Source of the DNA: an uncultured Gammaproteobacteria bacterium
GTDB lineage: Bacteria > Patescibacteriota > Microgenomatia > 2-02-FULL-39-11
Assembly (NCBI GenBank): GCA_964354025.1
Contig: CAYGXQ010000001.1
Location: 70,567 to 134,566, forward strand
Reading direction: 5' to 3'
Length of the DNA stretch: 64,000 bases
Part shown: positions 2,219 to 56,564 of the stretch, one piece after another
Layout: each line of letters starts with the position of its first letter
Numbering within the stretch: position 1 is the stretch's first letter
Program-made: the position numbers and the translations under genes
The notes under the pieces: model-generated
What the model was told of the DNA's origin: nothing
The model's database searches: none
The model's input: the letters and a program-made list of their open reading frames with translations, nothing else

Positions 2219-3310
2219 CTATCCAACTTCAACTTCCAAGTCCGGACGGGCCTGAATTTCTCTCCAGAGTACCGGGTGGTTGTGGAAATAAGCGTAACTG
2301 GCGATATAGCTGGCGTTGTCAGTGCAAAGGGAAGGAGGAGGAATATATAAATCAATTTTTAATTTTAAATTTTCAATTTTTAATTTGAACTTTTCCGTTA
2401 ACCGTTTATTAGCAGCGACACCGCCACCGAGGAGAATGGATTTCACCCGATATTTTTCGGCGGCTTTCAGGGTTTTATCCACGAGGACGTCAGTAATCGC
2501 TTCCTGGATTTCGTAAGATAGTTGTTGAATGGTGTAAGAATTAAGTTTCTTAAGTGCCTTAAGTTTATTTACTTCTCTTAAAACCGCGGTCTTCAGTCCG
2601 GAAAAGGAAAAATCAAAATTATCTTCATGCATCATCGGTCGGGGAAGTTTCACAATGTCATGCTGAACTCGTCCTGATTTAATCGGGATAAATTCAGGAT
2701 GATCATTACAGAACTTTGCAGCAGCATCTGCAATAGCTGGTCCACCGGGGTATCCAAGTCCCAAAAGTCTGGCAGTTTTGTCAAAAGTTTCTCCGGCCGC
2801 ATCATCGCGGGTCCCGCCGAGCCATATAATATCCCGGTGATTTTTCATCAAAAATAATTCCGTGTGTCCGCCGGAGACAACCAAAGCGATGGCTGGAAAA
2901 GAAGGAGGTTTTTCGACATCAAGCCAGTTGGCGTAAAGATGGGCCAGGACATGGTTGACCGGAATAATCGGTTTACCGGTAAGATAAACGATGGTTTTGG
3001 CTGTTTCTACGCCGACTAAAAGCGAACCGATTAAACCCGGTCCAATGGTTACTGCGATGGCGTCGATTTTTTCAATTGTTGCATTGTTGCATTGCTTGCC
3101 CTGAGCGGAGTCGAAGGGTTTCATTGTTTCATTTATTACGGGTATCATACACTTCACCTGTTCCCGGGCGGCCACTTCCGGAATAATCCCGCCGGTTTTC
3201 GTATGCAGGTCTTTTGAAGAGGAAACCACGTTGGAGAGAATTTTGACACCGTCCTCCACCAAAGCCGCAGCGGTTTCGTCACATGATGTTTCAATGCCTA
3301 AAATAATCAT
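2219..3310 (-). CDS. tsaD: tRNA N6-adenosine threonylcarbamoyltransferase TsaD (Kae1/YgjD family)
   Basis: MIILGIETSCDETAAAL..., AIAVTIGPGLIGSLLVG, VSGGHTELF. Start taken at internal Met (ATG 3308-3310) rather than the long ORF start that overlaps the upstream gene. Contains an in-frame repeat-derived insertion PFDSAQGKQ. Confidence 0.85.
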   Translation of the reverse strand: MIILGIETSCDETAAALVEDGVKILSNVVSSSKDLHTKTGGIIPEVAAREQVKCMIPVINETMKPFDSAQGKQCNNATIEKIDAIAVTIGPGLIGSLLVGVETAKTIVYLTGKPIIPVNHVLAHLYANWLDVEKPPSFPAIALVVSGGHTELFLMKNHRDIIWLGGTRDDAAGETFDKTARLLGLGYPGGPAIADAAAKFCNDHPEFIPIKSGRVQHDIVKLPRPMMHEDNFDFSFSGLKTAVLREVNKLKALKKLNSYTIQQLSYEIQEAITDVLVDKTLKAAEKYRVKSILLGGGVAANKRLTEKFKLKIENLKLKIDLYIPPPSLCTDNASYIASYAYFHNHPVLWREIQARPDLEVEVG

Positions 3311-5390: not shown

Positions 5391-6854
5391 TTATGTCTTA
5401 GTTCCATGCAGGAAGACTGCCTGCCAGGGTTGGTAATTGGAATAATAAGTGGTTTGAATAAGCGTTTCTCCGTTTCTGGTGACTTTATAATCAAAGTTAA
5501 CTTTAGCGCCCCAGGCTTTCCAGTCAACCTGTTTAACCGTACCTACCGGCAGGGTCGGGTCATCCTGATTAAGGTCCGGCGGCGGCGGATTCGAGGAAGT
5601 GATGACCGATTTGGAGATTTCCGCCTTTCTGCCATCAGCGGTTCCGTATATTTCAAAGGTTAAAGCGAAATTACCCGGATCCGGTTTGGCCTGGATAAGA
5701 ATATAATTTGGGGTGTCATTTTTGAATTTCAGGTCATAGCTGGGAGCAAAAACAGTGGCGTCAATCCCTGGCGGGGTACCCTGTTCGTAATAGCTAACCC
5801 GGTAGGAATGGGCATGGCGTTCAGTAACCGGCAGTCCGGCATTTAAGATGGCCCGAAAAAGTGTGGTGGAAACCTGGCAGACGCCGCCGCCGTCTCCCAG
5901 GACTGTCCGGCCGTCTTTGATGATGTAAGCCGGCTGGAAACCGGTACTCCCTGAGACGTCTCCCAAGGTGTCGTTAAAAGAAAAAATTTCGCCCGGCGGC
6001 AGCAGATGGCCGTTGATCCGGGAAGCCGCCAGGACGATATTGTGAATCCGGCCGGGGATGGAACCGGCATATTTGGAAGTGCCGACGCTTAAAAGTTCTT
6101 TGACGCCAAAATTATTGGAATCCTCAGTCGTAATCTGCGGCCTGACGGTTTTCACCGGCAGGTCAATGGCGATATTTTGAGGCTCAAACTGCGTTTGATT
6201 ATTTAAGGTATCGATATAGGAAGCAATCATCTGTTTCGTCTGCTGCTGGTCCAATTGCCGGCCCGGTTTTGACATTTTGAAAACAGAGACTTTGCCTTTT
6301 TCAAACTGGAAGAGGGCATCTTCGGTCGGGATATCGATACTGGTGGCCATAGAGGAAACGGTATCGTCGATAAGACCGGTATCCATGCGAAGAACGCTGG
6401 TTAAGTTGATGCCGATGGTAGCCCCTTTCCATTTCTGGTATAAGTCTGAAAAAATATGGCCTGAGCGTCCGATAGAATAAGCCTGTGTAGCCGAAAGTTT
6501 GGCATCATAGGCGATATTCAAATTCCGGCCGGAGATAGTGGCGATTTTATCTTCAAAAACGAGAGTGAATTTCAGGAGGGCAAACGGCAGGTTTTTCCGG
6601 TTATAGTAATCTTCGACCTCGGCCGGAGTTTTTCCCCCGTATGAGATTTTATCCACTCTGACCCCGGGATAGATTTTTCCCTGAAAATTTTTTTCAAAAT
6701 AATAATAACCGCCAAAAACAAGAATAATTGTTAGAAACACTAAAATGAGAATCAGATAAAAAAGGTAAGCAATAAAAGAAAAGCGGCCGGCAGGCTTAAT
6801 ATCAGGCTTTTGTTCATGAAGATGGGTTTTGGCGGATTTCTTTTCCTTGACCAT
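5391..6854 (-). CDS. VanW family protein, N-terminal TM anchor
   Basis: GGGVCQVSTTLFRAILNAGLPVTERHAHSYRVSYY matches the conserved VanW core. Hydrophobic helix near the N-terminus. Confidence 0.7.
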   Translation of the reverse strand: MVKEKKSAKTHLHEQKPDIKPAGRFSFIAYLFYLILILVFLTIILVFGGYYYFEKNFQGKIYPGVRVDKISYGGKTPAEVEDYYNRKNLPFALLKFTLVFEDKIATISGRNLNIAYDAKLSATQAYSIGRSGHIFSDLYQKWKGATIGINLTSVLRMDTGLIDDTVSSMATSIDIPTEDALFQFEKGKVSVFKMSKPGRQLDQQQTKQMIASYIDTLNNQTQFEPQNIAIDLPVKTVRPQITTEDSNNFGVKELLSVGTSKYAGSIPGRIHNIVLAASRINGHLLPPGEIFSFNDTLGDVSGSTGFQPAYIIKDGRTVLGDGGGVCQVSTTLFRAILNAGLPVTERHAHSYRVSYYEQGTPPGIDATVFAPSYDLKFKNDTPNYILIQAKPDPGNFALTFEIYGTADGRKAEISKSVITSSNPPPPDLNQDDPTLPVGTVKQVDWKAWGAKVNFDYKVTRNGETLIQTTYYSNYQPWQAVFLHGTKT

Positions 6855-6885
6855 GAGCTTCGTTTGCGGTTATCATAACATAAGG

Positions 6886-8484
6886 ATGAATAATAATACA
6901 CCTTCACCTTCGGGAGAAATCTTTTCCGGCGGCAACGTCAATAACGCTTCTTACCAGGAAGCATTAAACGTGACCCAGGACAACGAAGTGGCTCAAGCTC
7001 TGACTGACCAGCCGCAAGACCAACCGGGAGCGCAGGCAAACCCGAGTAATTCCGAAGGTTCAAGCGGTTTTCCCAATTATCCTTCCGGCAATCAGCCCAA
7101 TGTTCCATCGTCTGCCGAAGGCCCGCCGCCGTTTGTCGAGAATAACGCCAAGAAATTCCTGATTATCGGAGGAGTGATTGTTCTGCTTGTCATTTTCATC
7201 TTTCTGCTGTTTAAATTTCTCTCGGGCCGGTTTGCCAAACCGCCTGCACAGGCAAAAATCAATCTCACTTATTGGGGCCTTTGGGAGGAAGAGACAGTCA
7301 TCCGGCCGTTTATCGACGAATTCCAAAAGTCACATCCCAACATCACGGTTTCTTACAGCCGTCAGGACCCCAAACAATACCGGGAAAGACTGCAGGCGGC
7401 CATTTCCCGCGGTGAAGGCCCGGATCTTTTCCGCTTTCACAATACCTGGGTGCCGATGTTACTCGGAGAATTGGCGCCGATGCCCAAAACCGTTTATTCC
7501 GATAGCGACTTCGAAAAGATTTTTTATCCGGTGGCCGCTGAAAGTTTAAAAACCGGAGGCAATTTTTACGGGATACCTCTCATGATAGACGGTTTACTGC
7601 TTTTTTATAATGAAGACATATTAAAAAGCGCCAATGTTTCTGTCCCTGTCACCTGGGTTGATGTCCAAAACGCCGTCCCGAAATTGACCGTTAAGGAAGG
7701 TAACCGGATTGTCACTTCTGCCATTGCCCTGGGGACGGCTGAAAACATCGAACATTTCAGCGATATTTTGGGACTAATGATGTTGCAAAACGGGACCCAA
7801 CCGGTAAAATCCGTTTTCACCTGCACAGATCCGGCCAGCACCACCTGCGCGGTAGAAGCGCTTACCTTTTACCGCAAATTTGCCGAGACGCCAAATAATG
7901 CCTGGGATGCCACTTTGGAAAACTCCATTGTCGCTTTCGCCGGAGGGAAAGTGGCAATGATCCTTGCGCCCAGCTGGGAGGCGATTACCATCAAAAATCT
8001 CAGCCCCAATCTGAATTTCAAGACTGCCCAGGTACCGCAGCTTCCCTGTGACCGGACGCCCTGTCCGACGTTGAACTGGGCCAGTTTTTGGGTGGAAGGG
8101 GTTTCGGCAAAAAGCAAAAATCAGGAAGCGGCCTGGGAATTTTTGAAATATCTTTCTCAACCGGAAACGATGCAGAAAATGTATGCCGAGCAGGTGAAAC
8201 TGCGGCCGCTTTTCGGTGAACCTTACTCCCGGACGGATCTGGCCAAACTTTTGGCGGACAACGTTTACCTGGCGCCGCTTATTGTTTCGGCGCCGACGAT
8301 GAAATCCTTTTATCTTGCCTCGCGCACTTTTGACGGAGAAACCGGTTTGAATACTTCCCTTATCAATTACCTCAAAGACGCGGTTAATTCGCTTTCCCAA
8401 GGCACCAGTGTCGAGACGGCTTTAAAGACAGTCGACGATGGTTTCAAACAGGTGTTTGCCCGGTTTAACATCGGGGCCCCCTAG
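6886..8484 (+). CDS. membrane-anchored extracellular solute-binding protein (ABC transporter SBP family 1-like)
   Basis: Low-complexity N-terminal tail and one TM helix, then a domain with SBP-like layout (KINLTYWGLWEEE...). ATG 6886 with AAGG upstream; the track start at 6829 overlaps the convergent VanW gene. Confidence 0.55.
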   Translation: MNNNTPSPSGEIFSGGNVNNASYQEALNVTQDNEVAQALTDQPQDQPGAQANPSNSEGSSGFPNYPSGNQPNVPSSAEGPPPFVENNAKKFLIIGGVIVLLVIFIFLLFKFLSGRFAKPPAQAKINLTYWGLWEEETVIRPFIDEFQKSHPNITVSYSRQDPKQYRERLQAAISRGEGPDLFRFHNTWVPMLLGELAPMPKTVYSDSDFEKIFYPVAAESLKTGGNFYGIPLMIDGLLLFYNEDILKSANVSVPVTWVDVQNAVPKLTVKEGNRIVTSAIALGTAENIEHFSDILGLMMLQNGTQPVKSVFTCTDPASTTCAVEALTFYRKFAETPNNAWDATLENSIVAFAGGKVAMILAPSWEAITIKNLSPNLNFKTAQVPQLPCDRTPCPTLNWASFWVEGVSAKSKNQEAAWEFLKYLSQPETMQKMYAEQVKLRPLFGEPYSRTDLAKLLADNVYLAPLIVSAPTMKSFYLASRTFDGETGLNTSLINYLKDAVNSLSQGTSVETALKTVDDGFKQVFARFNIGAP

Positions 8485-8586
8485 TACTGTATTTCGTTAA
8501 TTTCGCGGCATTATTAGTGTTATGATAGATCGGTACAAAGGTTCAAAGAAAAATCTTTACACCGGAATATTCACGAAATACAGTAC
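8484..8586. repeat. MITE-like element bounded by perfect 14-bp terminal inverted repeats
   Basis: gtactgtatttcgt (8484-8497) and acgaaatacagtac (8573-8586) are exact reverse complements enclosing about 75 bp of AT-rich sequence. Confidence 0.6.
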
Positions 8587-8597
8587 AAGTAATTCTT

Positions 8598-9572
8598 ATG
8601 CCGCGACCACTTGAAAAAGCGATCATGAAAACTCTCATTTATGCTGATCTTTTTGATTATCCATTAACTAAGGAGGAGATTTGGAGAAGGTTGATAAAAT
8701 TACAAATTACAAATGATAAATTACAAATTAAATTAAAAAAATTAATAAATTCAATATTATTTGGGAAAAAAGAGAAATATTATTATTTGGTAGGGAGAGA
8801 GGAAATTATTCAATTGCGGAAAAGAAGGGAGAAATATTCGGAAGAAAAAGTAAAGATAGCCAGGCGGATTGCTAAACTTCTTAAATTTATTCCATTTGTT
8901 AAATTGGTCGGCTTGACCGGAGCGGTGGCCGCAGGAAACGCCGATGAAGATGATGATATCGATTTACTGATTATTACTTCGGGGAATTTGTTGTGGACGA
9001 CGCGTCTATTAGTTACTTTATCAGTTGATCTGATGGGACTTCGGCGAAGACCTGATGATAAAAAAGTGAAAAACAAAATCTGTTTAAATATGTTTATAGA
9101 TGAAAATTATTTGGCAATTGGTAAAGATGAAAGGGATTTGTTTACCGCTTACGAAATCACTCAGATGAAACCGCTGTTTGAAAAAAACCAGATATACAAG
9201 AGATTTATAAAAGCAAATGATTGGGTGGGAAAATATTTACCTAACGCTTTCAATGAACTAAGTACTTGTCCCATTGTCATCCCGACCGACCACAAGCGTG
9301 TAAACCACTTGTGGGAGTGGAGGGATCTTCCATATTCCGGAAGTTGGAAGATTCCTCCCCGATGGCCATCGGGACTCGGAATGACACTTTTTCGCTTGCT
9401 GGAAATACCAAGCAAGCGACTACAGCTTATATATATGAAAAAACGGCGCACGACCGAGAAAATCAAAACCGGAGTAATCCGATTTCACCCGAGGGATATC
9501 AGAAAGGAAATAATGAAACGGTTTGAGACGAGAGCCAAATCCCCCCTTGACAAGGTTTTTTTCACTGAGTAA
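8598..9572 (+). CDS. nucleotidyltransferase-domain protein (Pol beta superfamily) carrying two in-frame repeat insertions
   Basis: GLTGAVAAGNADEDDDIDLLII fits the GS-x(n)-DxD NTase motif. Residues KLQITNDKLQIKLKK are coded by the ttacaaattacaaat repeat (8697-8753). Residues CPIVIPTDHKRVNHLWEWRDL...LGMT are coded by a family-1 structured repeat (9276-9386). Confidence 0.55.
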   Translation: MPRPLEKAIMKTLIYADLFDYPLTKEEIWRRLIKLQITNDKLQIKLKKLINSILFGKKEKYYYLVGREEIIQLRKRREKYSEEKVKIARRIAKLLKFIPFVKLVGLTGAVAAGNADEDDDIDLLIITSGNLLWTTRLLVTLSVDLMGLRRRPDDKKVKNKICLNMFIDENYLAIGKDERDLFTAYEITQMKPLFEKNQIYKRFIKANDWVGKYLPNAFNELSTCPIVIPTDHKRVNHLWEWRDLPYSGSWKIPPRWPSGLGMTLFRLLEIPSKRLQLIYMKKRRTTEKIKTGVIRFHPRDIRKEIMKRFETRAKSPLDKVFFTE

Positions 9573-9600
9573 AATAGCACTCATCACAAGAAAGTGCCAA
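9547..9600 (+). promoter_or_regulatory. sigma70-like promoter (TTGACA-17-TAAAAT) overlapping a degenerate CIRCE operator upstream of groES
   Basis: TTGACA 9547-9552, TAAAAT 9570-9575. aTAGCACTC-N9-aAGTGCcAA at 9574-9600 matches the CIRCE consensus TTAGCACTC-N9-GAGTGCTAA at 15 of 18 positions. hrcA is present in the window. Confidence 0.6.
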
Positions 9601-9671
9601 TCCGCCAGCTGGCGGATTTAACCCAAATAAATATTTTAAAAAATTTGAACGGGTAAAGGAGGTCTTTATAT

Positions 9672-9974
9672 ATGGTTATTAAGCCAAATTCTATCAAACC
9701 GCTTTTTGATTACGTTCTCGTCAAACCCCTTGAAGAAGAAACCAAAACCCCGGGCGGAATATTGCTTCCCGATACAGTCAAAGAAAAACCCCAGATGGGT
9801 CAGGTCATGGCGATCGGTCCGGGAACAACAGACGATAAAGGTCATCCGGTAAAAGTTTTAGTCAAAGCCGGCCAAAAAGTGATGTACAAAAAATGGGGCG
9901 GCAACGAAATCAAAGTCGAAGGCAAAGAATGGTTGCTGGTCGAACAAAAAGATATCTTAGCTGTTATTGAATAA
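9672..9974 (+). CDS. groES: co-chaperonin GroES
   Basis: MVIKPNSIKPLFDYVLVKP...TPGGILLPDT...VEQKDILAVIE. RBS AAAGGAGGT at 9655-9663. Confidence 0.95.
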   Translation: MVIKPNSIKPLFDYVLVKPLEEETKTPGGILLPDTVKEKPQMGQVMAIGPGTTDDKGHPVKVLVKAGQKVMYKKWGGNEIKVEGKEWLLVEQKDILAVIE

Positions 9975-10106
9975 TAATTGTTATAAAGGTTAAGCCCGCC
10001 TGCTCTTACTTCTCGCCTTACCTACTATTCGTAGCGCGGCTCGAAGAGCGAGCTTAGGCGGGTTCAAGAAACTGTAATCCCGATAAGATCGGGAAACAGT
10101 TTCTAG

Positions 10107-11774
<1,668 letters not shown>

Positions 11775-11796
11775 AGTAATCAAAAATTATCAAAAT

Positions 11797-11829
11797 CAAA
11801 AAGTCCCGAGTCTACCTCGGGACTTTTTA
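11797..11829. terminator. bidirectional rho-independent terminator
   Basis: A-tract, stem gtcccgag / ctcgggac with 5-nt loop, then TTTTTA. Lies between convergent groEL and the minus-strand gene at 11849. Confidence 0.7.
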
Positions 11830-11848
11830 TATAGTTGATTTAGTCTCT

Positions 11849-12238
11849 TCACCATGAATTTATAATTGGAGTAACAGGAGATTTTATATTTTGTTGGAAA
11901 AAAAGAGATTTTTCTGATAAAAACGCGTATATTATAAACATATCAAGAAGTAGCGGAATAATTAAGAACAATGAGAAAGAGAAGATAAATGACAGGATAT
12001 TACCGATAGTGGTAAGAGTAATAGTTACTACTCCTGCGTACCAACTCCATTTTTTATGTCTTCTGATTGCAGAACCCAGGAAAAAAGAATAAATTCCTAA
12101 AATTAGTGCTATAAAACCCTGCCAGATTTGGCTGAGACTATCTACTTGACCACCACTAAAAAGTAATGGAAACAATACCATTACAATAAAAGAGAAAATA
12201 AATATCGGAGCTACAATTATAAACAGTAAAAAATACAC
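11849..12238 (-). CDS. small polytopic membrane protein, hypothetical
   Basis: 129 aa, about four hydrophobic helices. The predicted start is a GTG inside the flanking palindrome, so the true start is uncertain. Confidence 0.35.
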   Translation of the reverse strand: MYFLLFIIVAPIFIFSFIVMVLFPLLFSGGQVDSLSQIWQGFIALILGIYSFFLGSAIRRHKKWSWYAGVVTITLTTIGNILSFIFSFSLFLIIPLLLDMFIIYAFLSEKSLFFQQNIKSPVTPIINSW

Positions 12239-13008
12239 ACCAGGTGTGTATTAGCTTGACATATACGGGAAACTGATATAAATTGTAGTCATGCCGTACC
12301 GTAAGACCGTATTTGCTTGCGGAGAATATTACCACATTTACAACAGAGGCGTTGCTTATCAGCCGATTTATAAAAATAAAAGGGATTATGAAAGATTTTT
12401 ATTAACGCTTTCATATTACCGATTTCGGGACTGCCCGGTCAGACTTTCAAAATTATTGCTGACTCCTAAAGAAATCAGAGACGATATATTATCAGCCTTA
12501 GCTAAAGACAATAGTAAAAGAATAGAAATTCTTGCATATTGTCTTATGCCAAATCATTTTCATTTGCTTATTCAGCAAATCAAAGAAGGTGGAATATCAA
12601 AATATCTGCGTCAGTCAATAAATAGTTATGCAAAATACTTTAATACGAAATACAAAAGAGTAGGATCTCTTTTTCAGGATATGTTTAAGGCTGTCCGGAT
12701 AGAATCAGATGAGCAGCTTATACATGTTTCGCGATATATTCACCTTAATCCACTCGTTTCCTATTTGGTCAATCGAGAGGAACTACCCGAGTATCCTTGG
12801 TCATCACTGCAATCATATTTGGGAAAATCTGACTCTGATTTGGTAGTCGCGGAAACTGTTTTGGCCAATTTTAAAAACAAAAAGGAGTATATGCAATTTA
12901 TACTTGATCAGGAAGATTACGGAAAAAAGTTAGAACATATTAAACATCTTATGCTTGACGGAACATAATAATCCGTATGTGCAAACGTAATACACACCTG
13001 GTGTGTAT
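12233..13008 (+). mobile_element. HUH Y1 transposase gene (RAYT/IS200-like) flanked by inverted copies of a 19-bp palindrome
   Basis: atacacaccAGGtgtgtat at 12233-12251 and its reverse complement atacacaccTGGtgtgtat at 12990-13008 bracket the CDS. Confidence 0.7.
12291..12968 (+). CDS. REP-associated tyrosine transposase-like HUH endonuclease (Y1 transposase fold)
   Basis: HUH motif NHFHLLIQ and catalytic Tyr context SRYIHLNPL (compare RAYT YIHYNP). Own promoter TTGACA 12256-12261, ATAAAT about 12278-12283. Confidence 0.75.
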   Translation: MPYRKTVFACGEYYHIYNRGVAYQPIYKNKRDYERFLLTLSYYRFRDCPVRLSKLLLTPKEIRDDILSALAKDNSKRIEILAYCLMPNHFHLLIQQIKEGGISKYLRQSINSYAKYFNTKYKRVGSLFQDMFKAVRIESDEQLIHVSRYIHLNPLVSYLVNREELPEYPWSSLQSYLGKSDSDLVVAETVLANFKNKKEYMQFILDQEDYGKKLEHIKHLMLDGT

Positions 13009-15311: not shown

Positions 15312-16587
15312 AAGTCGCGTTATCTTTCATAAGATAAGTTTTTGAAGGCGGAGGAGGAAAATCCGCCCTGGAAACAGCCGGAAAAACGACGTTGACGCCG
15401 ATATAATCAGGAACGGTGATGCTATTGGGATTATAGATAAATACTTTTTCCGGGAATTTATAATAAAAAGCGGATTCCAAAAAAGCAATCGGAGTTTGGG
15501 TATAAACAAAATCAGACGCTTCAGCATTTTTGTTTATTTCCGAAAAAGCGCTCTTGAAATCGGTTTTGCGGTGACCCGGGACCAGGGCGATATCGATAAC
15601 AATGACTAAAAGAAGAAAAGCAGCGGCGGTAAAATTTCTCAATAATTTGTTTTTAATGCTCCAGATGCCCAAAGAGATGCCGAAGATTTCAAAAACAGTG
15701 ATAAAAATAAAATAGCGGTTGACATAAATCGGCCGGCGAAGATATGAATAGCCCAAAACTCCAAATAAGGTAAAAAATATCGGCGTCAAAAATAACAAAG
15801 CCTGTTTCTTATTTTGCCGAAATCCTATCCAGAAGAAAACAAGGATGATGACTGAAAGCCAAAAAGTCAAAGGCCACCAGTTGCCCGGCGTGCCTTCGAA
15901 GTTGGTAAAAAGATTGCCCAAAACTGATTTAACCAGTTGCAGGTCAACCGGGAAGATCCAGGAATCTTTTGAACGTATAAATTGATTTATGAGGACCGGC
16001 AGCCAGGGAAGGAAGAAAAGCAGCGGTTTGGCGGTATTGATTATCAGCCTGCGGTGGTTTTGTTTGGTCAGAAAATAATAAATGATGAAAGATACGGGGA
16101 TAAGGATAAAAAATGACTGGGTGTAAAGTCCCAGGACAGTCGCAACTAAATACCCTTTCCACTCTTTTTTGTACCAGAAATATAAGGAACAAACGGTAAA
16201 CAGGGCATAAAAAGAATACATCCGGATTTCAAAAGCGTAATAGAGAAGCATCGGGTTGAAAAAAGTGAAAGCGGCAACATATAGGGCAAAGCGGCGGGAA
16301 AAGATTTTCTCCGCCAGAAGCGAGGCCACATAAACACTGATAACGAAAGCCAGAAAAGAAAGCAGTCTCAGTCCTACGTCTGATTTGCCGACGATTTGCA
16401 TCCACAAATGCAAAATCAGGTAATAAAAAGGAGGGTTAAAATCATGGGCGGTATTGCTGATGATCTTTATCAGATCCGGTTTAGCCATAAAATATGAAAA
16501 AGCCTCGTCCCGCCAAATTGACTGGATCAGATAAAAAAGCGGTGTTTGGTAGAAAATATAATTAACAATATTCATTTTGTATTCCAA
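15289..16587 (-). CDS. GT-C fold glycosyltransferase (ArnT/PMT family 39/83-like)
   Basis: Polytopic; early DEAFSY loop motif characteristic of ArnT/PMT-type GT-C enzymes. Confidence 0.6.
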   Translation of the reverse strand: MEYKMNIVNYIFYQTPLFYLIQSIWRDEAFSYFMAKPDLIKIISNTAHDFNPPFYYLILHLWMQIVGKSDVGLRLLSFLAFVISVYVASLLAEKIFSRRFALYVAAFTFFNPMLLYYAFEIRMYSFYALFTVCSLYFWYKKEWKGYLVATVLGLYTQSFFILIPVSFIIYYFLTKQNHRRLIINTAKPLLFFLPWLPVLINQFIRSKDSWIFPVDLQLVKSVLGNLFTNFEGTPGNWWPLTFWLSVIILVFFWIGFRQNKKQALLFLTPIFFTLFGVLGYSYLRRPIYVNRYFIFITVFEIFGISLGIWSIKNKLLRNFTAAAFLLLVIVIDIALVPGHRKTDFKSAFSEINKNAEASDFVYTQTPIAFLESAFYYKFPEKVFIYNPNSITVPDYIGVNVVFPAVSRADFPPPPSKTYLMKDNATYDLLLIR

Positions 16588-16590
16588 CGG

Positions 16591-16652
16591 GATCCCTCGA
16601 TCCGCCAGCTGGCGGACTCGGGATGACAGAAAAGATTTAAATCTTTTCTGTC
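16591..16652. repeat. composite structured repeat: 16-bp perfect palindrome plus family-1 end module plus hairpin
   Basis: gatccctcga, then tccgccagctggcgga (16601-16616; the identical 16-mer is at 9601-9616), then ctcgggatgacag, then hairpin gacagaaaagatttaaatcttttctgtc. Confidence 0.6.
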
Positions 16653-18990: not shown

Positions 18991-19060
18991 TGTCATTGCG
19001 AGCAAAGCGAAGCAATCCCATCCGAGATTGCCACGGCTACTTCGTAGCCTCGCAATGACA
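18991..19060. repeat. family-1 structured repeat with 12-bp perfect terminal inverted repeats
   Basis: tgtcattgcgag ... ctcgcaatgaca. The internal segment cgaagcgaagcaatcccatccgagattgc occurs inverted in the copy at 32483-32557. Confidence 0.7.
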
Positions 19061-21968: not shown

Positions 21969-22056
21969 TGTCATCCCGACCGATCCCGACTTAGTCGGGA
22001 GAGTGGAGGGATCTTCCCAGAGGCGGAAGATTCCTCGACTTCGCTCGGAATGACAG
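21969..22056. repeat. family-1 structured repeat (full-length copy)
   Basis: tgtcatcccgac ... ggagggatcttccc ... ggaagattcctcgacttcgctcggaatgacag. Ends are inverted repeats with nested hairpins. Confidence 0.7.
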
Positions 22057-22066: not shown

Positions 22067-25063
22067 ATGGATCAAAAGAAGTTAAATAAGGAACAGCTTG
22101 AGGCGATCCGTCACTGGAAAGGCCCGCTTCTGGTGATTGCCGGCGCGGGGACGGGTAAAACAACGGTTATAACCGAGCGGATCAAATGGCTGATTGCCGA
22201 AGGCCTGGCCAAACCAGCCGAAATTCTGGCTTTGACTTTTACCGATAAAGCGGCTCGGGAAATGGAAGAACGGGTTGACCGGGCGCTTCCTTACGGTTAT
22301 ACCCAAATGTGGATTACCACTTTTCATTCATTTGGGGAGCGGGTTTTACGGCAGGAAGCGATCCAGATAGGTTTGAATCCGGGATACCGGCTCATGGCTG
22401 AGGCGGAGAGTATCATTTTTTTCCGCAAAAACCTCTTTAAATTTAACCTGAATTATTTCCGGCCAATGGGAAATCCGAACAAGTTTATTTCCGGTATGCT
22501 GCAGCATTTTACCAGGTTTAAAGATGAAGACATATCACCTAAAGAATATTTTAATTGGGCGAAATTAAACAATGAAACAACCCGCCAGCCGGCGAGGCAG
22601 GTGAAACAATTGAACAATGAGGAAAAAACTATTGAGAGTGAAAAATATATGGAACTGTCTGATGCTTTTCAAAAGTATGAAGAACTGAAAGTCAAAGAAG
22701 GTTTGATGGATTTTTCCGACCTGATAACTAACACTCTAAATCTTTTCCGGTTAAGGAAAAATATTTTGAAAAATTATCAGGAGCAGTTTAAGTATGTCTT
22801 GATTGATGAATTCCAGGACACAAATTTTGCCCAAAATGAACTGGCGGTTCTTCTGGCCGGAAACAGAAAAAACATAACGGTCGTCGGGGACGATGATCAG
22901 GCGATTTACCGATGGCGCGGCGCGGCTGTTTCCAATATTATCCAATTCCGGCAAAAATTCCCGGAGGCAAAGCCGGTGGTTTTGACGAAAAATTACCGTT
23001 CCACCACTGAAATTCTTGACCGGTCATATGACCTTATCCAAAACAACAATCCAGACCGGTTGGAAGTAAAAGAGAAAATTAATAAAAAACTAGAAAGCCA
23101 AAGAGGGATAAAAGGAGAAAAAATAGAATTGATTTATGAAAAGAGAGTGGAAGATGAAGCGGAAAAAGTAGCTAAACAAATTACAAATTATAAATTACAA
23201 ATTACAAATGACGAAGGGAAAGAATTATACAGTTGGAAAGATTTTGCCATTTTGGTTCGGGCCAACAGTCAGGCAGAACCGTTTGCCAGGGCACTATCCC
23301 GGGCCGGTATCCCTCACCAGTTTTTAGGACCGGGCATGCTTTTTAGGCAGTCTGAAGTCAAAGACCTGATCGCTTACCTTAAATTACTCGACGACTTCAC
23401 TGATTCGGTGGCCTTTTTCCGGGTTGTCACAATGCCGGTTTTTGGGATAAACACCCGGGATATTTATGCCGTCAATAATTTTGCCAAAAGAGTCGGGCTT
23501 TCCTTATTTGAAGCAGTTGAGGTGGTGGTGGCGTTTTTCTTAGGCGATGAAGGACATTGGAGCCGGATGAAAAATTACCAGAATTACCTGCCGTATACAG
23601 GCGAAACTACCAAAGAAAAACTGACCAAGATAATGAAAATGATCAACCGGCATTTGGATTTGGCCAGAAAAGAAACCGCCGGTCAGGTTCTCTACTACTT
23701 TCTGGAAGACAGCGGCATTTTGAAAGAACTGGTTGAGTACAAGACGGTCAAAGAGGAAAAGACCGCCTTAAATATCTCGAAATTTTTCGACAAGCTGAAG
23801 ACTTTTGAGACGGAACACGAAGAAGCAAATGTAGCGGCGGTGGTTGATTGGATTGAAATGGCGATGGAACTGGGTGAAAGTCCCCTGGCGGCGGATACTG
23901 ACTGGTCACAAAATGACGCGGTAAATATCCTGACAGTCCATTCGGCTAAAGGATTGGAGTTTCCGGTGGTCTTTTTAGTCAATCTGGTTAACCAGCGTTT
24001 TCCGACAGTTGAGCGGCATGAACAAATTCCCATCCCTGATGAGCTGGTGAAGGAGATATTGCCGGAAGGGGATTATCATCTGGAGGAGGAAAGACGGCTG
24101 TTTTACGTAGGTATGACCAGGGCCCGCGACCGGCTGATTTTGACCGCGGCCAATTTCTACGGAGAGGGCAAAAGAGAAAGGAAGATCTCGCAGTTTGTGA
24201 TGGAAACGTTGGGAGAGAAGAACATCAATAATTTAACAATTCAACCCTTCGACTTCGCTCAGGGTAAGCAATTGACTCTTTTAGAATGGAAAAAAACTGA
24301 AGAATTACCGGCCAAAACTATTAAACAACCCATCGAATATCTTTCTTATTCCCAAATTGAGAGTTTCACGACCTGTCCGCTGCAGTATAAATACCGCTAT
24401 ATCATCAGAATTCCGGCCCCTCCTTCGGCCGCCGGCTCTTTCGGAACATCCATCCATCTGACTTTGCAGAAATTTTACGAGCGGGTTAAAAGAGGCGAGC
24501 GGCCGCAAAAAGAGGATTTATTGCAGATATTGGATGAGGTCTGGCTGCCGGTCGGTTACGGTTCGAAACAATATGAAGAGAAAATGAAGACCAGAGGCCG
24601 CGACATGCTTCAGGCTTTTTTTGAGAAATTTTACGATCCCGACAAAAAGCCAAAAAGCCTGGAGCAGATTTTTAAGATAAAGCTGACACCGACTCTTAAA
24701 ATCGGCGGCAAAATCGACCGGGTGGATGAGACGCCTGACGGAAAGTTGGAAATTATCGATTACAAAACCGGCAAACGTCCCACCGATAAGGCCATCGCCG
24801 AAAACCTGCAGATGACGGTTTACGCGCTGGCCGCCTGCGACTCCGGTATTTACAACAGACGGCCGGAAGAAGTGGTTCTTTCTTTTTATTTTTTTGACGC
24901 CCGGGAGAAAGTAACTTCGACTAGGACAAAAGAACAGTTGGAAGAAGCCAAGAAAAAACTCCTGGAAAAAGCCCAAGATATTGCATCAAGCGATTTCTCT
25001 CCAAAAGTGGGCAAATGGTGCGATTTTTGCGATTTCCGCCTCATCTGTGAAGCCTGGCAATAA
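22067..25063 (+). CDS. UvrD/PcrA-family helicase fused to a C-terminal PD-(D/E)xK (RecB/Cas4-type) nuclease domain with Cys cluster
   Basis: Walker A GAGTGKTT, DEFQDT, VTLTKNYRS, C-terminal YSQIESFTTCPLQYKYRY...IDYKTGK...CDFCDFRLICEAW. Two in-frame repeat insertions at 23175-23212 and 24243-24264. Confidence 0.85.
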   Translation: MDQKKLNKEQLEAIRHWKGPLLVIAGAGTGKTTVITERIKWLIAEGLAKPAEILALTFTDKAAREMEERVDRALPYGYTQMWITTFHSFGERVLRQEAIQIGLNPGYRLMAEAESIIFFRKNLFKFNLNYFRPMGNPNKFISGMLQHFTRFKDEDISPKEYFNWAKLNNETTRQPARQVKQLNNEEKTIESEKYMELSDAFQKYEELKVKEGLMDFSDLITNTLNLFRLRKNILKNYQEQFKYVLIDEFQDTNFAQNELAVLLAGNRKNITVVGDDDQAIYRWRGAAVSNIIQFRQKFPEAKPVVLTKNYRSTTEILDRSYDLIQNNNPDRLEVKEKINKKLESQRGIKGEKIELIYEKRVEDEAEKVAKQITNYKLQITNDEGKELYSWKDFAILVRANSQAEPFARALSRAGIPHQFLGPGMLFRQSEVKDLIAYLKLLDDFTDSVAFFRVVTMPVFGINTRDIYAVNNFAKRVGLSLFEAVEVVVAFFLGDEGHWSRMKNYQNYLPYTGETTKEKLTKIMKMINRHLDLARKETAGQVLYYFLEDSGILKELVEYKTVKEEKTALNISKFFDKLKTFETEHEEANVAAVVDWIEMAMELGESPLAADTDWSQNDAVNILTVHSAKGLEFPVVFLVNLVNQRFPTVERHEQIPIPDELVKEILPEGDYHLEEERRLFYVGMTRARDRLILTAANFYGEGKRERKISQFVMETLGEKNINNLTIQPFDFAQGKQLTLLEWKKTEELPAKTIKQPIEYLSYSQIESFTTCPLQYKYRYIIRIPAPPSAAGSFGTSIHLTLQKFYERVKRGERPQKEDLLQILDEVWLPVGYGSKQYEEKMKTRGRDMLQAFFEKFYDPDKKPKSLEQIFKIKLTPTLKIGGKIDRVDETPDGKLEIIDYKTGKRPTDKAIAENLQMTVYALAACDSGIYNRRPEEVVLSFYFFDAREKVTSTRTKEQLEEAKKKLLEKAQDIASSDFSPKVGKWCDFCDFRLICEAWQ

Positions 25064-28511: not shown

Positions 28512-30858
28512 TATGAAAAGATTTTTTTATACAATATTTCTTGCCATTATCCTTTTGGGGATTTTTTATTCCTTTAAAAATAGCGCATATGCTGTAGATT
28601 GTTCGATTCTCAGCTCAAATCCTGCTTGCGGTAAATGTGTTATAGATCCATGGTCTGGGAGTGGTGCTTGTATGAAACAGTGTAATCCTGGTGCGATTAC
28701 GTGTTCCGGTAAGGAAGATCTGAATTCCTGCTGGTGGAGATGTAATGCAGCTGAAGGGGGATGTGATAATCCCTACCAATGCTGTTATCCGCCGAGTCCC
28801 ACTCCGACTAATTCACCACCCTCCTGTAACAGCCTGACTGTCCAGCCGGTTACCGTGATGCCTGGAGAGTCGATTACCCTAAAAGCAAACGTCGGCGAAT
28901 TGAACGGCTCGGTTACGAAAGTGGATTTTTATTACGGATTAGTATCGGAAATAGACGGAGGGGCGGCGGTCAATCCTCCAGGCGGTAACTGGCATCCTTT
29001 AGGCAGTGTGTCATCCAGTCAACCGACAATCCCCTTTGCTCCTTTGGTCACGCCGAATGTTAAAACAGGTAAAAGTTGTGACCAGATTTGTCAGGGATAT
29101 CAGGGCAGGTCCTGTTTGTCAGTTGGTACTGATACCGGGGGAACAAACGGGAGCGTGACGAAATTTAATAGTACTGGGAGTGAAGACGGCAGTTGTGATT
29201 CACAAACGGGCGGATGGGCAAGAGAGAAATGCAATGTAGCGATGAATGCTCATGGACAAATGCCTTGCGACTGGACAAATTGCCGCTGTTCGGATTGGCC
29301 GACTTTAACTACATTTACGGATGTTTCTTGGACCGGAACTTTTCCGGGAACAGGAGGAGCCTATTATTTCATCGCCAATGTCTTTGACGCTCAGGGCCTG
29401 TTTTGTTCCGGCAATCCTAAAAAACCGGCTGACGTAAAAGGATGTTCAGCCTGTATGTTGCAAACAACCGTGGTGACGCCATCACCGACTCCCAGTGAGT
29501 CTCCGACGCCTTCAGCAACACCTACATCTACCCCTACTTCTACTCCTACCCCGACACCTCTTGGATGCGGCAATCCCTGCAGCCCGGACAATAACGAATG
29601 TCCCGAAGAATGTCCATTTTGTCCGGTAGATAATTCCTTTTGCGTCGGTCCAAGTTCCACGCCCACTCCCACCCAAGTTCCTTGTAACGGCCCCTGTACT
29701 AACAGCAATGAATGTGATATAAACTGTCCTCTTTGTTCAACTGATCATACCTGTAGGGTACCTTGTGGTGATCTGTGCACCAACAGCAACGAATGCGATC
29801 TGTCCTGTCCGATTTGTACGGCTGATAACAAATGTTTGGCAGCCAGTCCGACTCCCACTAAAGTCCCCTGTACCCAACCATGTACCAATAGCCTAGAATG
29901 CGATATCAACTGTCCTCTTTGTTCAACTGATCATACCTGTAGGGTACCTTGTGGTGATCTGTGCACCAACAGCAACGAATGCGATCTGTCCTGTCCGATT
30001 TGTACGGCTGATAACAAATGTTTGGCAGCCAGTCCGACACCGACAGCTACACCGATTCCTCCGACAGCTACACCGACAGCGACTGTCACTCCGACACCGG
30101 AGCCATACTGCCTTTGCGATAGTATGGAATATACAGGATCTCCGGTACCGGGTGGGACAATGAGTTTCACTACCTGGGGTAGGATACCGGATTATGCCCA
30201 CAATAATTCAGGCATCCAGAGTATGATTTATCGGGTTTGGAACGGAAGACCGGAATCGCAATCTGTGCCTCCGGATGCAGCCGGACCCGTCACTGTACCA
30301 GCCCAAGGTCCGGTAACCGTCGGTGCTGATTACCGGTATTCGACGACTTGGAATTGGCAAATTCCGAGTACCGTGCCGACTTCCGGTTATGTCGATTATT
30401 ATTTCAACGCGGAAATCAAGTGTGTCAGACCAAGATCGACAGCGGATAGCGGCAGTAATCTGGTTCAGGCAAACACGGCGGTGCTGGGTACAACCGAGGA
30501 AAAAAGTCCCGGCTTTTTTGCCTCCATTCTTCGTTTCTTCGGTTCTCTTTTAGGAATTTCTCCATCTGTGGTTACTCCTTCACCGCTAGTACCTACTCCT
30601 ACCTCCTCTGCCCGGCTTGTTCCGCTGGCCGCCGAAGCACTTTCGCCTACACCTACCCAGGTCATGCTTCCTCCTTCTCCCACAATGGGAATGGGAGGGT
30701 ATTGCGCCAGTACTGTTCTTGCACCATCAGGAGTCCATAGCGATCAACTAGGCACTTTTACTCCCAATTGCGCCTGTCCTACCCCAGCAATTATCAAAAC
30801 ATGTACCTGGACAGTCTTAAGAATATATTACGGTGATGATTGTGTGAAGACACCGTAA
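28504..30858 (+). CDS. large secreted Cys-rich modular surface protein, cassette component B2
   Basis: Signal peptide; N-terminal Cys-rich domain homologous to B1; Pro/Thr linkers; five CxxxxECxxxCPxC modules; C-terminal domain homologous to B1. Confidence 0.6.
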   Translation: MSSMKRFFYTIFLAIILLGIFYSFKNSAYAVDCSILSSNPACGKCVIDPWSGSGACMKQCNPGAITCSGKEDLNSCWWRCNAAEGGCDNPYQCCYPPSPTPTNSPPSCNSLTVQPVTVMPGESITLKANVGELNGSVTKVDFYYGLVSEIDGGAAVNPPGGNWHPLGSVSSSQPTIPFAPLVTPNVKTGKSCDQICQGYQGRSCLSVGTDTGGTNGSVTKFNSTGSEDGSCDSQTGGWAREKCNVAMNAHGQMPCDWTNCRCSDWPTLTTFTDVSWTGTFPGTGGAYYFIANVFDAQGLFCSGNPKKPADVKGCSACMLQTTVVTPSPTPSESPTPSATPTSTPTSTPTPTPLGCGNPCSPDNNECPEECPFCPVDNSFCVGPSSTPTPTQVPCNGPCTNSNECDINCPLCSTDHTCRVPCGDLCTNSNECDLSCPICTADNKCLAASPTPTKVPCTQPCTNSLECDINCPLCSTDHTCRVPCGDLCTNSNECDLSCPICTADNKCLAASPTPTATPIPPTATPTATVTPTPEPYCLCDSMEYTGSPVPGGTMSFTTWGRIPDYAHNNSGIQSMIYRVWNGRPESQSVPPDAAGPVTVPAQGPVTVGADYRYSTTWNWQIPSTVPTSGYVDYYFNAEIKCVRPRSTADSGSNLVQANTAVLGTTEEKSPGFFASILRFFGSLLGISPSVVTPSPLVPTPTSSARLVPLAAEALSPTPTQVMLPPSPTMGMGGYCASTVLAPSGVHSDQLGTFTPNCACPTPAIIKTCTWTVLRIYYGDDCVKTP
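29677..30048 (+). repeat. tandem direct duplication of a 186-bp unit (62 aa, two Cys modules) inside B2
   Basis: 29722-29852 is 100% identical to 29908-30038 (131 bp); the upstream parts of the units are about 80% identical. Confidence 0.85.
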
Positions 30859-31760: not shown

Positions 31761-32582
31761 ATGATTACCTCCGGTAATTTAATCGGCGCTTTTTTGGCAG
31801 GATTGACGTCCTTTTTTGCCCCGTGTCTGCTGCCGCTTTTTCCCTCTTACTTTTCCGCCGTCTCCGGCTTTACTTTTGCCCAGTTGTACGGACTGGATTT
31901 CGGCAAAATCAGGTTACGGGTCTTTGTCTCCAGTCTTTTTTTCTCGGCCGGATTTGCGATCGTTTTCACGGCTTTGGGAGCCACCGGTTCCCTTGTCGGA
32001 CAACTTCTGGAGAAGTACCTGCCGTATCTTTTGAGGCTAAGCGGGATATTTTTGATACTATTGGGTCTTGTACAACTGGGAATAATCAAAATTCCCTCTT
32101 TTGAATTTGACTATGCTTGGAAAATGCAGAAAAAAATGGCCGGTCTCGGGTTCTTAACCTCTTTGGTAACCGGGATTGCCGCCGCGCTGTCTTGGATTCC
32201 CTGTATCGGGCCGCTTTTGTCTCCGATCCTTTTGCTTTCTGCAGAAAGCGAGACGGTGTTTTCCGGCAGTTTACTTTTATTTATTTTTTCCCTGGGACTG
32301 ACGGTACCGTTTTTGGCCGGCGGATTATTTTTCCCGGCCGTAGTCAATCTTCTTCAGGGTCATAGGCAGCTGTTTCACCGGATTTCACAGCTGGCGGGAA
32401 TATTTATTATCATCCTCGGGATATTATTACTCGCAGATAAATATCAGTTATTGATAAAATTATTTGAAGGGATAGTTTTATCTGTCATTGCGAGTCCCGA
32501 TGTCACATCGGGACGCGGCAATCTCGGATGGGATTGCTTCGCTTCGCTCACAATGACATATAAACATAAATTCATTATATAA
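31761..32582 (+). CDS. ccdA: CcdA/DsbD-family transmembrane thiol-disulfide electron transporter
   Basis: Paired Cys motifs FAPCLLPL and WIPCIGPLL in TM helices. The last ~30 codons (VIASPDVTSGRGNLGWDCFASLTMT...) are read through a family-1 repeat and are probably not native. Confidence 0.75.
   Translation: MITSGNLIGAFLAGLTSFFAPCLLPLFPSYFSAVSGFTFAQLYGLDFGKIRLRVFVSSLFFSAGFAIVFTALGATGSLVGQLLEKYLPYLLRLSGIFLILLGLVQLGIIKIPSFEFDYAWKMQKKMAGLGFLTSLVTGIAAALSWIPCIGPLLSPILLLSAESETVFSGSLLLFIFSLGLTVPFLAGGLFFPAVVNLLQGHRQLFHRISQLAGIFIIILGILLLADKYQLLIKLFEGIVLSVIASPDVTSGRGNLGWDCFASLTMTYKHKFII
32483..32557. repeat. family-1 structured repeat with near-perfect 12-bp TIRs
   Basis: tgtcattgcgag ... ctcacaatgaca. 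Central module is the reverse complement of the central module of the 18991 copy. Confidence 0.7.
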
Positions 32583-36079: not shown

Positions 36080-36097
36080 AGTATATCTTGTTCTCTT

Positions 36098-36130
36098 CAC
36101 ACCGGGTGTGTGCAGCACACACCCGGTGTG
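36098..36130. repeat. pair of CACACC-N-GGTGTG palindromes in inverted orientation
   Basis: cacaccGggtgtg (36098-36110) and cacaccCggtgtg (36117-36129); same core as the palindromes flanking the Y1 transposase gene. Confidence 0.7.
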
Positions 36131-36174
36131 GTTTTAAGGCACAATGATATTTTATATGTTATCATATCTATGAT

Positions 36175-40448: not shown

Positions 40449-40654
40449 ATCTTCCTTTTAGACAATTTATCAAAATATTGCTTTAAGTTCAATAGAAGGA
40501 TCTTTCGCTTCTTCAGATCGGAAAAAATATATGATTTTATTGCTTAATTGTTCTATTGTTAAATTGTAAATTTTTCGTCTTCCCTCAATCCGTAAATAAT
40601 ATTTAGTCTCGTTAGGTTGTCTTACGTCTGTGTAAGTTATATACTAATACTATT

Positions 40655-49856: not shown

Positions 49857-49970
49857 ATGTTACGATTTTTTCGATCAGATTACTGCCGGGAATTTATGCT
49901 TGAAGTAATATATCATGCTAAAAAGAGCCTGTCAAGCACTATAGGCTTAGTATAATTTACCACTAGATTG

Positions 49971-50026
49971 GAAGATCCCTCAACGAAGTTTATCCTGAGC
50001 GAAGTCGAAGGGTTCGGGATGACAGA
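49971..50026. repeat. family-1 structured repeat, half copy
   Basis: ggaagatccctcaacgaagtttatcctgagcgaagtcgaagggttcgggatgacag; contains the same 22-mer found in frame in tsaD and in the helicase. Confidence 0.65.
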
Positions 50027-52836: not shown

Positions 52837-52893
52837 ACAATTATAAATTACAAATTCTAAATTATAAATTAAATTAAAAATTCAATAATTAAG
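52837..52893. repeat. AT-rich ttacaaatt/ttataaatt repeat, intergenic copy
   Basis: acaattataaattacaaattctaaattataaattaaattaaaaattcaataattaag; same family as the in-frame copies at 8697-8753 and 23175-23212. Confidence 0.6.
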
Positions 52894-56391: not shown

Positions 56392-56564
56392 ATAGCGGAC
56401 TTTAGTCCGCGTCCTTCGGCTTCACTCAGGACAAGTTCAGCGCGCACTTAAAGTGCGCTATTCCAGAAACTGTGGCAAGCCAAATACGTGAATTCAAGGT
56501 GGAAGATCCCTCGACTTCTCCTTCGTCTCGCTTCGTTCGCTCAGGATTCGCTCGGAATGACGAC
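56392..56564. repeat. family-2 double-hairpin repeat fused to a family-1 half copy
   Basis: taatagcggacTTTAgtccgcg...agcgcgcacTTAAagtgcgctattcc (56392-56466), then ggaagatccctcgacttctcc...gctcggaatgacg (56501-56564). Confidence 0.6.

Follow-up and report, generated by a model that had tools for sequence, protein, structure and literature searches.

A dispersed nested-hairpin element read in frame within a predicted disordered linker of a Microgenomates nucleotidyltransferase gene

Described repeat systems and the nucleotidyltransferase locus

The Rickettsia palindromic elements (RPEs) are stop-free palindromic repeats that lie in frame within unrelated genes, where the peptide that they encode is judged to be compatible with the fold of the host protein, and bacterial transposable elements of the miniature inverted-repeat type (MITEs), among them ERIC, BOX, and the MITEs of cyanobacteria, can also create in-frame fusions (PMC10969869). 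Here we analyze a stretch of 64,000 nucleotides of DNA (hereafter, the window, numbered from its first letter) from a genome of the Microgenomates group of the candidate phyla radiation (CPR), in which the gene for a nucleotidyltransferase (NTase) is read through a nested-hairpin element of a dispersed family, denoted family-1, and through an AT-rich heptamer array. We consider it likely that this is a functional, conserved Microgenomates gene, two permissive segments of which have come to be occupied by dispersed repeats of the genome's own. In-frame repeat insertion of this kind is already known from Rickettsia, the primary reports being those of Ogata et al.

Among the described systems, the RPEs appear to be the closest analogue of family-1, being palindromic, about 100-150 bp long, dispersed in a small genome, and read through in frame at permissive sites of conserved genes. 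The likeness is one of description and not of membership: the host here belongs to the CPR/Microgenomates, and the element has other ends. Furthermore, family-1 is modular, with inner hairpins that can be exchanged while the ends and core stay fixed; the contigs bearing its ends differ widely in GC content (median 62% among the matches listed), so that it is not restricted to one lineage; and the lengths and frames of its elements carry no built-in coding bias, in contrast to the conserved peptide that each RPE is described as encoding. Bacterial MITEs resemble family-1 in being small, bounded by terminal inverted repeats, present in many copies, mostly intergenic, and occasionally translated, but no target-site duplication was seen for family-1, and a parent insertion sequence with matching ends was not found in the window.

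Repetitive extragenic palindromic (REP) sequences and bacterial interspersed mosaic elements (BIMEs), together with REP-associated tyrosine transposases (RAYTs) of the IS200-like Y1 type, form another such system, the REPtron, in which hairpin repeats are dispersed without target duplication. Family-1 shares with it the capacity to form hairpins, and the window harbors a Y1 transposase-like open reading frame (ORF; 12291-12968) flanked by inverted palindromes; unlike single REPs, family-1 elements reach 87-112 bp and contain nested hairpins. The heptamer array, in turn, recalls the heptanucleotide short tandemly repeated repetitive (STRR) sequences of heterocystous cyanobacteria, arrays of 7-bp units that are dispersed over many genomic sites. 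The arrays in the window differ from these in being AT-rich and short (about five units), in occurring in frame within genes in two of the three cases, and in that three heptamer units here encode a peptide repeat of seven residues. If repeats of either kind are routinely translated within conserved genes, this becomes a practical issue for annotation of the small, gene-dense CPR genomes, whose proteins often carry unexplained insertions: translated repeats yield odd peptides (here, VIPSAA...LGMT and KLQITNY) and inflate the apparent divergence between orthologs. The inserts also mark structurally permissive sites of proteins.

The element, the host gene, and the linker

The NTase gene (8598..9572, forward strand) is an intact ORF of 324 codons with an ATG start and contains two segments that vary among orthologs: HV1, an AT-rich segment near the N-terminus, and HV2, a linker that holds the hairpin element. 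The element spans 9275..9386 on the forward strand (112 bp, including a terminal T), and the 111 bp at 9276-9386 are exactly codons 227-263, encoding VIPTDHKRVNHLWEWRDLPYSGSWKIPPRWPSGLGMT; as the first-pass annotation had stated, the ORF is read without interruption through both the AT-rich repeat and the complete 111-bp hairpin repeat. The ends, 11 nt each, are TGTCATCCCGA (the left terminal inverted repeat, 9275..9285, forward strand) and TCGGAATGACA (9376-9386), and they pair at 10 of the 11 positions, with a single C/A mismatch. Nested between them on the same strand are a variable hairpin A (9290..9314, CCACAAG...CTTGTGG), which is replaced by another hairpin in the copy at 21969, a conserved core hairpin (9320..9357, GAGGGATCTTCC...GGAAGATTCCTC), and a variable hairpin C (9358..9373, CCCGAT GGCC ATCGGG). 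The fold of 9275-9386 has a predicted energy of -52.5 kcal/mol (z = -3.7), which none of 200 shuffled sequences equaled, and four of the six frames of this copy are open. An Rfam search of 8300-10200 at E up to 1 returned nonsense matches only, and a known RNA family, intron, or ribozyme was therefore rejected as an account of the element, as was an intragenic terminator, because the terminator scan calls none there. The estimate of about 55 inserted residues in the first-pass annotation is too high: the element adds 37 codons, the net gain over the sister orthologs is 30 residues, and HV1 adds none.

In the host protein, a winged-helix-like N-terminal domain precedes a nucleotidyltransferase core of the minimal (Pol-beta) type, which is followed by a small C-terminal domain. 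Pfam NTP_transf_2 (PF01909) matches residues 90-163 with 25.5 bits (cut-off 21), and the predicted fold is similar solely to minimal nucleotidyltransferases, namely, MNT (the MntA antitoxin), AadA/ANT, and HalB of the Hailong system. The likeness to MntA, AadA, and HalB resides in the core fold (residues ~90-210) and in the motif G-x-(S/T)-G ... DDDIDL, which takes the form G105-x-T-G108 plus D119-D120-I-D122 here and is invariant in the family alignment; unlike these proteins, the NTase has, in addition, the winged-helix-like domain at its N-terminus and a C-terminal domain that bears an RFHPxD motif, lacks a HEPN partner, and is conserved in synteny with a solute-binding protein and groESL. 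Every one of the 339 homologs found in a protein search comes from Microgenomates-type CPR bacteria, including Gottesmanbacteria, Levybacteria, and Roizmanbacteria, and in a genome scan, 555 species representatives proved to have relatives. The conserved N-terminus MPRxLEKAI of the two orthologs nearest to the window protein, P0002 (at locus L001) and P0003 (at locus L002), speaks for the start at 8598. The gene order in the window, with a gene for a solute-binding protein of protein family 1 (SBP, 6829-8484) followed by the NTase, groES (9672-9974), and groEL (10119-11774), is kept in Microgenomates, where SBP lies directly 5' nearly everywhere and groES-groEL lie ~50-150 bp 3' of the NTase in about half of the loci.

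In the AlphaFold model of the window protein (mean predicted local distance difference test score, pLDDT, 69.7), values below 50 are confined to the C-terminal tail and a single internal stretch, residues 224-260, bordered by the helices 215-223 and 261-281. The model of the insert-free P0002 is of higher confidence (mean pLDDT 87.3, predicted template modeling score 0.86), and its only internal stretch with pLDDT < 50 (221-231) lies inside a coil at residues 212-234. Because the same position is a low-confidence coil in the protein that lacks the insert, the insert is predicted by these models to occupy an intrinsically disordered linker between the NTase core and the C-terminal domain. Both the length and the sequence of this linker are hypervariable across 63 orthologs, and in 10 orthologs (L023, L033, L049, L054, L057, L068, L072, L077, L079, and L081) it is missing entirely, with the gene broken exactly at HV2 and continued in another frame. 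At nine of the 10 split loci, ORF1 ends directly past the conserved LPN motif (as LPNWKP* in seven), and in the five of these nine for which the DNA was inspected, the conserved C-terminal ~55 residues resume in the -1 frame. At the tenth locus, L081, the end of ORF1 is LPNAFN*, and the C-terminal part resumes in the +1 frame. Programmed -1 frameshifting was considered and set aside, the split being left as an observation: the split orthologs have no conserved slippery heptamer, and an ATG is available instead in the continuing frame in all six inspected loci, derived in the -1 loci from the invariant Trp codon. Given that the split orthologs lack the linker and encode the C-terminal part in a different frame, the two halves of the NTase evidently can function without a covalent link.

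The frame of the NTase gene is intact, and the gene is under purifying selection. Pairwise ratios of nonsynonymous to synonymous substitution rates (dN/dS) against L001 and L002 amount to 0.18-0.19 in the conserved parts, and the 48 codons that follow the insert give 0.19-0.23; in HV2, the values are about 1 or, owing to saturation, not computable. Moreover, every residue that is invariant across 23 orthologs is kept, including G105, G108, and D119/D120/D122. With dN/dS low downstream of the insert as well and no invariant residue lost, the gene appears to tolerate the insert rather than to be decaying. The first-pass annotation had left the choice between tolerance and decay open; the intact frame, the invariant residues, the dN/dS values, and the position of the insert in a loop speak for tolerance. 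For annotation, the NTase should, then, count as a real gene and receive no pseudogene flag, and the protein with its 37-residue loop is presumably made and active.

Comparison with the sister lineages bears on the origin of the insert. The 111-bp segment is absent from the NTase orthologs, P0002 and P0003 included, and copies of it occur elsewhere in the genome; the opposite pattern, identical segments in orthologs without copies elsewhere, which the first-pass annotation had named as fatal to its proposal, was not encountered. Although the SBP and groESL genes of L001 and L002 are 90-91% identical to those of the window in DNA, the protein identity of the NTase to these sister orthologs is only 63-68%, and their HV2 linkers are 25 residues long and unrelated in sequence to that of the window. 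BLAST matches between the window and L001/L002 are interrupted at two places, namely, in the SBP-NTase spacer and from 9185/9247 to 9419/9423, which covers HV2; HV1 leaves the match unbroken, yet nearly all similarity is gone there in the nucleotide alignment. In place of the element, HV2 of L002 contains an AT-rich 8-mer array and HV2 of L001 contains a 28-bp mini-palindrome, TGTCTTGCCGGCAGGCAGGCAAATGACA, with TGTC...GACA ends and AAATCCC on either side (L001 2718-2759). This 7-bp direct repeat is the sole feature resembling a target duplication that was seen for any copy. Beyond the NTase, the second full family-1 copy of the window (21969-22055) is missing in L204 and L205 (86-88% DNA identity), where the RmuC-helicase spacer measures 8 bp, with a junction in L204 too diverged to judge target duplication, and at the site of the copy at 16583-16628, both relatives have another hairpin. 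Because copies are absent or replaced in L001, L002, L204, and L205, the family turns over between sister lineages.

Several observations weigh against the reading of a functional gene with recently acquired repeats. The nearest relatives carrying the NTase reach only ~68% protein identity, too little for a clean empty site or a target duplication to be demonstrated; the net gain of 30 residues does not match the 37 residues of the element; and the mini-palindrome at the same place in L001 implies that the element could be old and remodeled in situ rather than new in the window lineage. Furthermore, no transposase was tied to family-1; the sole transposase-like ORF found in the window (12291-12968) has other flanking repeats. 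Finally, the allele is found on one contig only (P0001, 1 member), and the pairwise dN/dS values also fit a very recent insertion into a gene that has just been disabled. The last two points lead to an alternative in which the element and the repeat-filled N-terminus have inactivated the NTase, creating a young pseudogene in which decay has yet to become visible: pairwise dN/dS cannot isolate the time since insertion, and the model of the window protein is poorer than that of P0002. We nevertheless regard this alternative as quite unlikely, in view of the 324 open codons, the retained invariant residues, the insertion exactly in frame in the one disordered loop, the many conserved orthologs that hold other palindromes or long fillers in the same linker, and the occurrence of family-1 in frame in the essential arginyl-tRNA synthetase (ArgRS) as well.

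Under the preferred reading, that of a functional gene with two repeat-occupied permissive segments, a non-autonomous nested-hairpin (MITE/REP-like) element with the ends TGTCATCCCGA...TCGGRATGACA would have landed in the disordered linker and would persist there because the frame is kept, no stop is in frame, and the encoded loop would leave the fold undisturbed. Copies that landed elsewhere within genes would have been removed by selection, leaving the other copies intergenic, and the element itself would be a hairpin, selfish or hitch-hiking, that has been kept at a position both permissive and in frame. In HV1, the heptamer array may have replaced or homogenized the already variable, Lys/Ile/Asn-rich helix 3, the AAATTAC unit being present also in a variable loop of a helicase.

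The heptamer array and palindromes of other orthologs

The (AAATTAC)n array of HV1 (8697..8756, forward strand) is in frame as K34-S52 (KLQITNDKLQIKLKKLINS) and falls in the third helix of the N-terminal domain, which the model of the window protein places at residues 40-53 and that of P0002 at residues 38-49; of the two segments that the first-pass annotation proposed to look for in loops, HV2 is indeed a low-confidence loop, and HV1 is not. Tandem Repeats Finder reports the unit AAATTAC with period 7 and 4.9 copies at 8697-8730, and a 9-bp periodicity continues to 8756, at a GC content of 0.17-0.19. With up to 3 mismatches, the 20-mer AAATTACAAATTACAAATKA has nine matches in the window, at 8697, 23178, and 52838, compared with 0.02 expected from shuffles. 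At the second of these sites, another in-frame (AAATTAC)n array (23176..23209, forward strand) codes for KQITNYKLQITND in a UvrD/PD-(D/E)XK helicase gene (22067-25063); the sequence of L204 at this position is AT-rich and degenerate, and loops resembling KKIKNEKLKIKNE are present in other orthologs. The third is an intergenic array of the same heptamer family (52839..52882) that is 90% identical to 8698-8739. Phase variation via the 7-bp array is unlikely, only two adjacent units being perfect.

HV1 adds no length to the gene, with 75 bp in the window compared with 57-81 bp in most orthologs. L001 has an AAAATTC x 9.1 array at this place, L002 has AATGTAAC, with the hairpin-forming palindrome TCCGCCAGCTGGCGGA and a 16-mer array, and more distant Gottesmanbacteria have similar Lys/Ile/Asn-rich peptides. 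In HV1, therefore, no segment has been added; rather, a variable helix of equal length has been replaced in a lineage-specific manner, and because the AAATTAC unit is genome-specific and common to unrelated genes, the arrays appear to have spread, or to have been homogenized, into AT-rich loops that were already variable. It is highly improbable that HV1 and HV2 are ordinary, fast-evolving low-complexity linkers that resemble the repeats by composition. For HV2, this is excluded by the exact 11-13-nt modules, the paired termini, and the second full copy of the element. For HV1, such an explanation would be in line with the equally long Lys/Ile/Asn-rich segments of orthologs (KIKNQKSKIKN, KLKIKNKKI) and with the similar behavior of the helicase loop, but it sits poorly with the presence of AAATTAC at three genome sites, far above the expected number of matches, and with the other units or degenerate sequence found in relatives that are 86-91% identical in DNA.

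Palindromes are found at HV2 in other orthologs, too. The HV2 DNA folds with z < -2 in 13 of 53 orthologs, whereas either of two control segments does so in 2 of 53, and the hairpins include long inverted heptamer arrays (L044, L037, L045, and L051) as well as a different hairpin family in L005 (KDTS...PPRWR), which has a second in-frame copy in another gene. Relative to their own +/-6 kb flanks, the variable segments show weak enrichment in a k-mer test (3.3-3.9% vs 1.8-2.4%), and blastn-short searches of the same flanks with the ortholog segments retrieved copies solely for L005, L012, and L019. We tentatively raise the possibility, doubtful as it is at present, that the NTase linker is a recurrent landing pad for palindromic DNA across Microgenomates and, more broadly, that protein-coding genes of CPR bacteria have undergone a Rickettsia-like, genome-wide colonization by a hairpin family that crosses phyla and by heptamer arrays that are genome-specific, with essential genes affected (ArgRS and the GroEL tail). 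If so, repeats would be a regular source of extra loops in CPR proteins, and some of them might be kept for a role at the level of the nucleic acid.

Such a role could also be ascribed to the NTase copy itself, if the hairpin were selected as DNA or RNA, through ribosome pausing at the domain boundary, transcript stabilization or processing, or insulation of the groESL promoter ~160 bp downstream, and merely tolerated by the protein. The recurrence of palindromes of unrelated forms at HV2, in the proportions given above, is what selection of this kind would produce, and at 18991-19060, an element of a sister family, bounded by TGTCATTGCGA, shows 100% identity with its counterpart in L204 within surroundings that are ~86-88% identical. 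However, three quarters of the orthologs have no significant HV2 hairpin, ten are devoid of the linker, strong hairpins are seen whether or not groES lies directly downstream, and neither a terminator-like site nor an Rfam match was found at the element, so we consider selection of the hairpin at the nucleic-acid level unlikely, and retention of the element at a site where the protein tolerates it remains the explanation that we prefer.

Family-1 copies, their relatives, and neighboring elements

The terminal motif of family-1 occurs 16 times in the window, compared with 3.6 occurrences expected, and the total is two full and three half copies, with full elements of 87-112 bp. The second full copy (21969..22055) occupies the RmuC-helicase spacer and has in common with the NTase copy the ends and the exact 13-mer GGAGGGATCTTCC and 12-mer GGAAGATTCCTC that form the core hairpin GGAGGGATCTTCC...GGAAGATTCCTC, differing in the inner hairpin. 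The three right-half copies, 16583..16628 (which contains the palindrome CCGCCAGCTGGCGG), 49970..50024, and 56501..56562, are intergenic, and a sister family with the ends TGTCATTGCGA is represented at 18991-19060 and 32483-32558. Copies are intergenic throughout, save for the one in the NTase gene and that at 32483, in the 3' tail of a DsbD-like ORF. In their terminal inverted repeats and their small size, non-coding nature, and multiple copies, the family-1 elements agree with MITEs; no direct repeats flank the copies at 9275, 21969, 18991, and 32483. Because no target duplication was seen and the ends form hairpins, movement by a single-strand, hairpin-based mechanism of the Y1-transposase type or by template switching would fit the observations.

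Both elements of the sister family have features of their own. That at 32483-32558 makes up the final ~25 codons of the DsbD_TM-family ORF 31761-32582, and because the DsbD_TM Pfam domain is already over at residue 224 of 273, the element probably supplies this ORF with a new C-terminal tail and stop. That at 18991-19060, between TatD and tRNA-synthetase genes, matches the L204 copy at 70 of 70 positions, against an overall DNA identity of only ~86-88% between the window and L204, and is either constrained or recently homogenized.

Outside this genome, a metagenome scan with the pattern TGTCATCCCGA-N60-90-TCGGRATGACA found elements with family-1 ends on at least 120 contigs. Among the matches listed, the contigs are mostly high-GC, and since their median GC content is 62%, most family-1 hosts do not seem to be CPR bacteria. 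The canonical metagenome form is TGTCATCCCGAGCGnAGCGAGGGATCT ... variable hairpin ... AGATCCCTCGCTnCGCTCGGGATGACA, the metagenome copies share the core GAGGGATCT...AGATYCCTC, and the copies in the window are low-GC variants of this form. Literature searches on palindromic repeats or MITEs of CPR/Patescibacteria and on the end sequences returned nothing relevant. The data, thus, point to a very widespread, mobile-looking family that apparently has no name in the literature.

On low-GC contigs, family-1 is in frame in two further genes, namely, that of a GT4 glycosyltransferase, where it falls in the interdomain linker (L095, residues 206-238), and that of ArgRS, where it falls within the DALR domain (L099, residues 503-534). 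Element lengths leave remainders of 0, 1, and 2 upon division by 3 in 35, 50, and 36 cases, respectively, without a bias to multiples of 3, and the elements have 2.77 open frames of 6 on average, a mild excess over the 2.18 of shuffled sequences. A coding capacity built into the family was rejected on these grounds; because the lengths are unbiased and the excess of open frames is mild, in-frame copies are better seen as survivors than as products of design.

Downstream of the element, the 3' end of the NTase gene overlaps a sigma-70-type promoter of groES (9547..9575, forward strand; 11/12 match to consensus), which covers the last 8 codons and the stop. It consists of TTGACA at 9547-9552, a 17-nt spacer, and TAAAAT at 9570-9575; the -10 hexamer overlaps the TAA stop, and the -35 hexamer is translated as LDK of the conserved NTase tail SPLDKVFFTE. 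The promoter is conserved in L002, as is an inverted repeat resembling the CIRCE element (controlling inverted repeat of chaperone expression), ATAGCACTC-N9-AAGTGCCAA (9574..9600, forward strand), which has 3 mismatches to TTAGCACTC-N9-GAGTGCTAA, lies between the -10 hexamer and groES, and begins 2 nt past the NTase stop. The placement of both signals within the 3' end of the gene by the first-pass annotation is, accordingly, right for the promoter and wrong for CIRCE. Another CIRCE-like repeat, TTAGCAGTC-N9-TAGTGCTAA at 58535-58561, has 2 mismatches and is closer to the consensus than the groES one.

On the upstream side, the SBP-NTase spacer measures 113 bp in the window vs 5 bp in L001 and L002 and contains a separate palindromic insertion of 103 bp (8484..8586) with perfect inverted ends of 13 nt, GTACTGTATTTCG, which has no further copies in the window and provides the present SBP stop codon, one codon ahead of the ancestral CAG-TAA. 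The window has the 14-nt palindrome CCGCCAGCTGGCGG at three places: in the right-half copy mentioned above (16602-16615), past CIRCE upstream of groES (9602-9615), and in the C-terminal tail of GroEL (11715-11728), where it codes for PPAGG. It also lies in frame in HV1 of the L002 NTase. The GroEL tails of L005, L023, and L045 code for PPAGG as well, with one CCGCCAGCTGGCGG palindrome per locus, and the tail DNA of L005 shows the palindrome directly.

The transposase-like ORF 12291-12968 (225 aa; stretch 12233-13008) matches Y1_Tnp (IS200-like) with 41.3 bits, above the cut-off of 23, and its best NCBIfam match is RAYT, which at 52.7 bits falls short of the cut-off of 80. The ORF is bordered, in a REPtron-like layout, by inverted 36-nt repeats with the palindrome ATACACACCWGGTGTGTAT, which is not of family-1, and L002 lacks the whole stretch of ~1.25 kb that lies here between groEL and the PEGA/SH3 gene (11775-13003); palindromes akin to ATACACACCWGGTGTGTAT are found at 36097-36131. 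The helicase gene 22067-25063 includes, apart from its heptamer array, a hairpin-family segment at 24230-24272 (QPFDFAQGKQ) that has an inverted partner at 3091-3133 and at which L204 differs from the window as well. Other repeats of the window are AT-rich 7-8-bp arrays followed by a conserved TTCGTCTTCCCTCAATCC motif, a TTCTGTC/TTCCGTC array with a 14-bp period, and a 186-bp tandem duplication (40503-40604, 41375-41484, 41520-41631, and 29657-30028).

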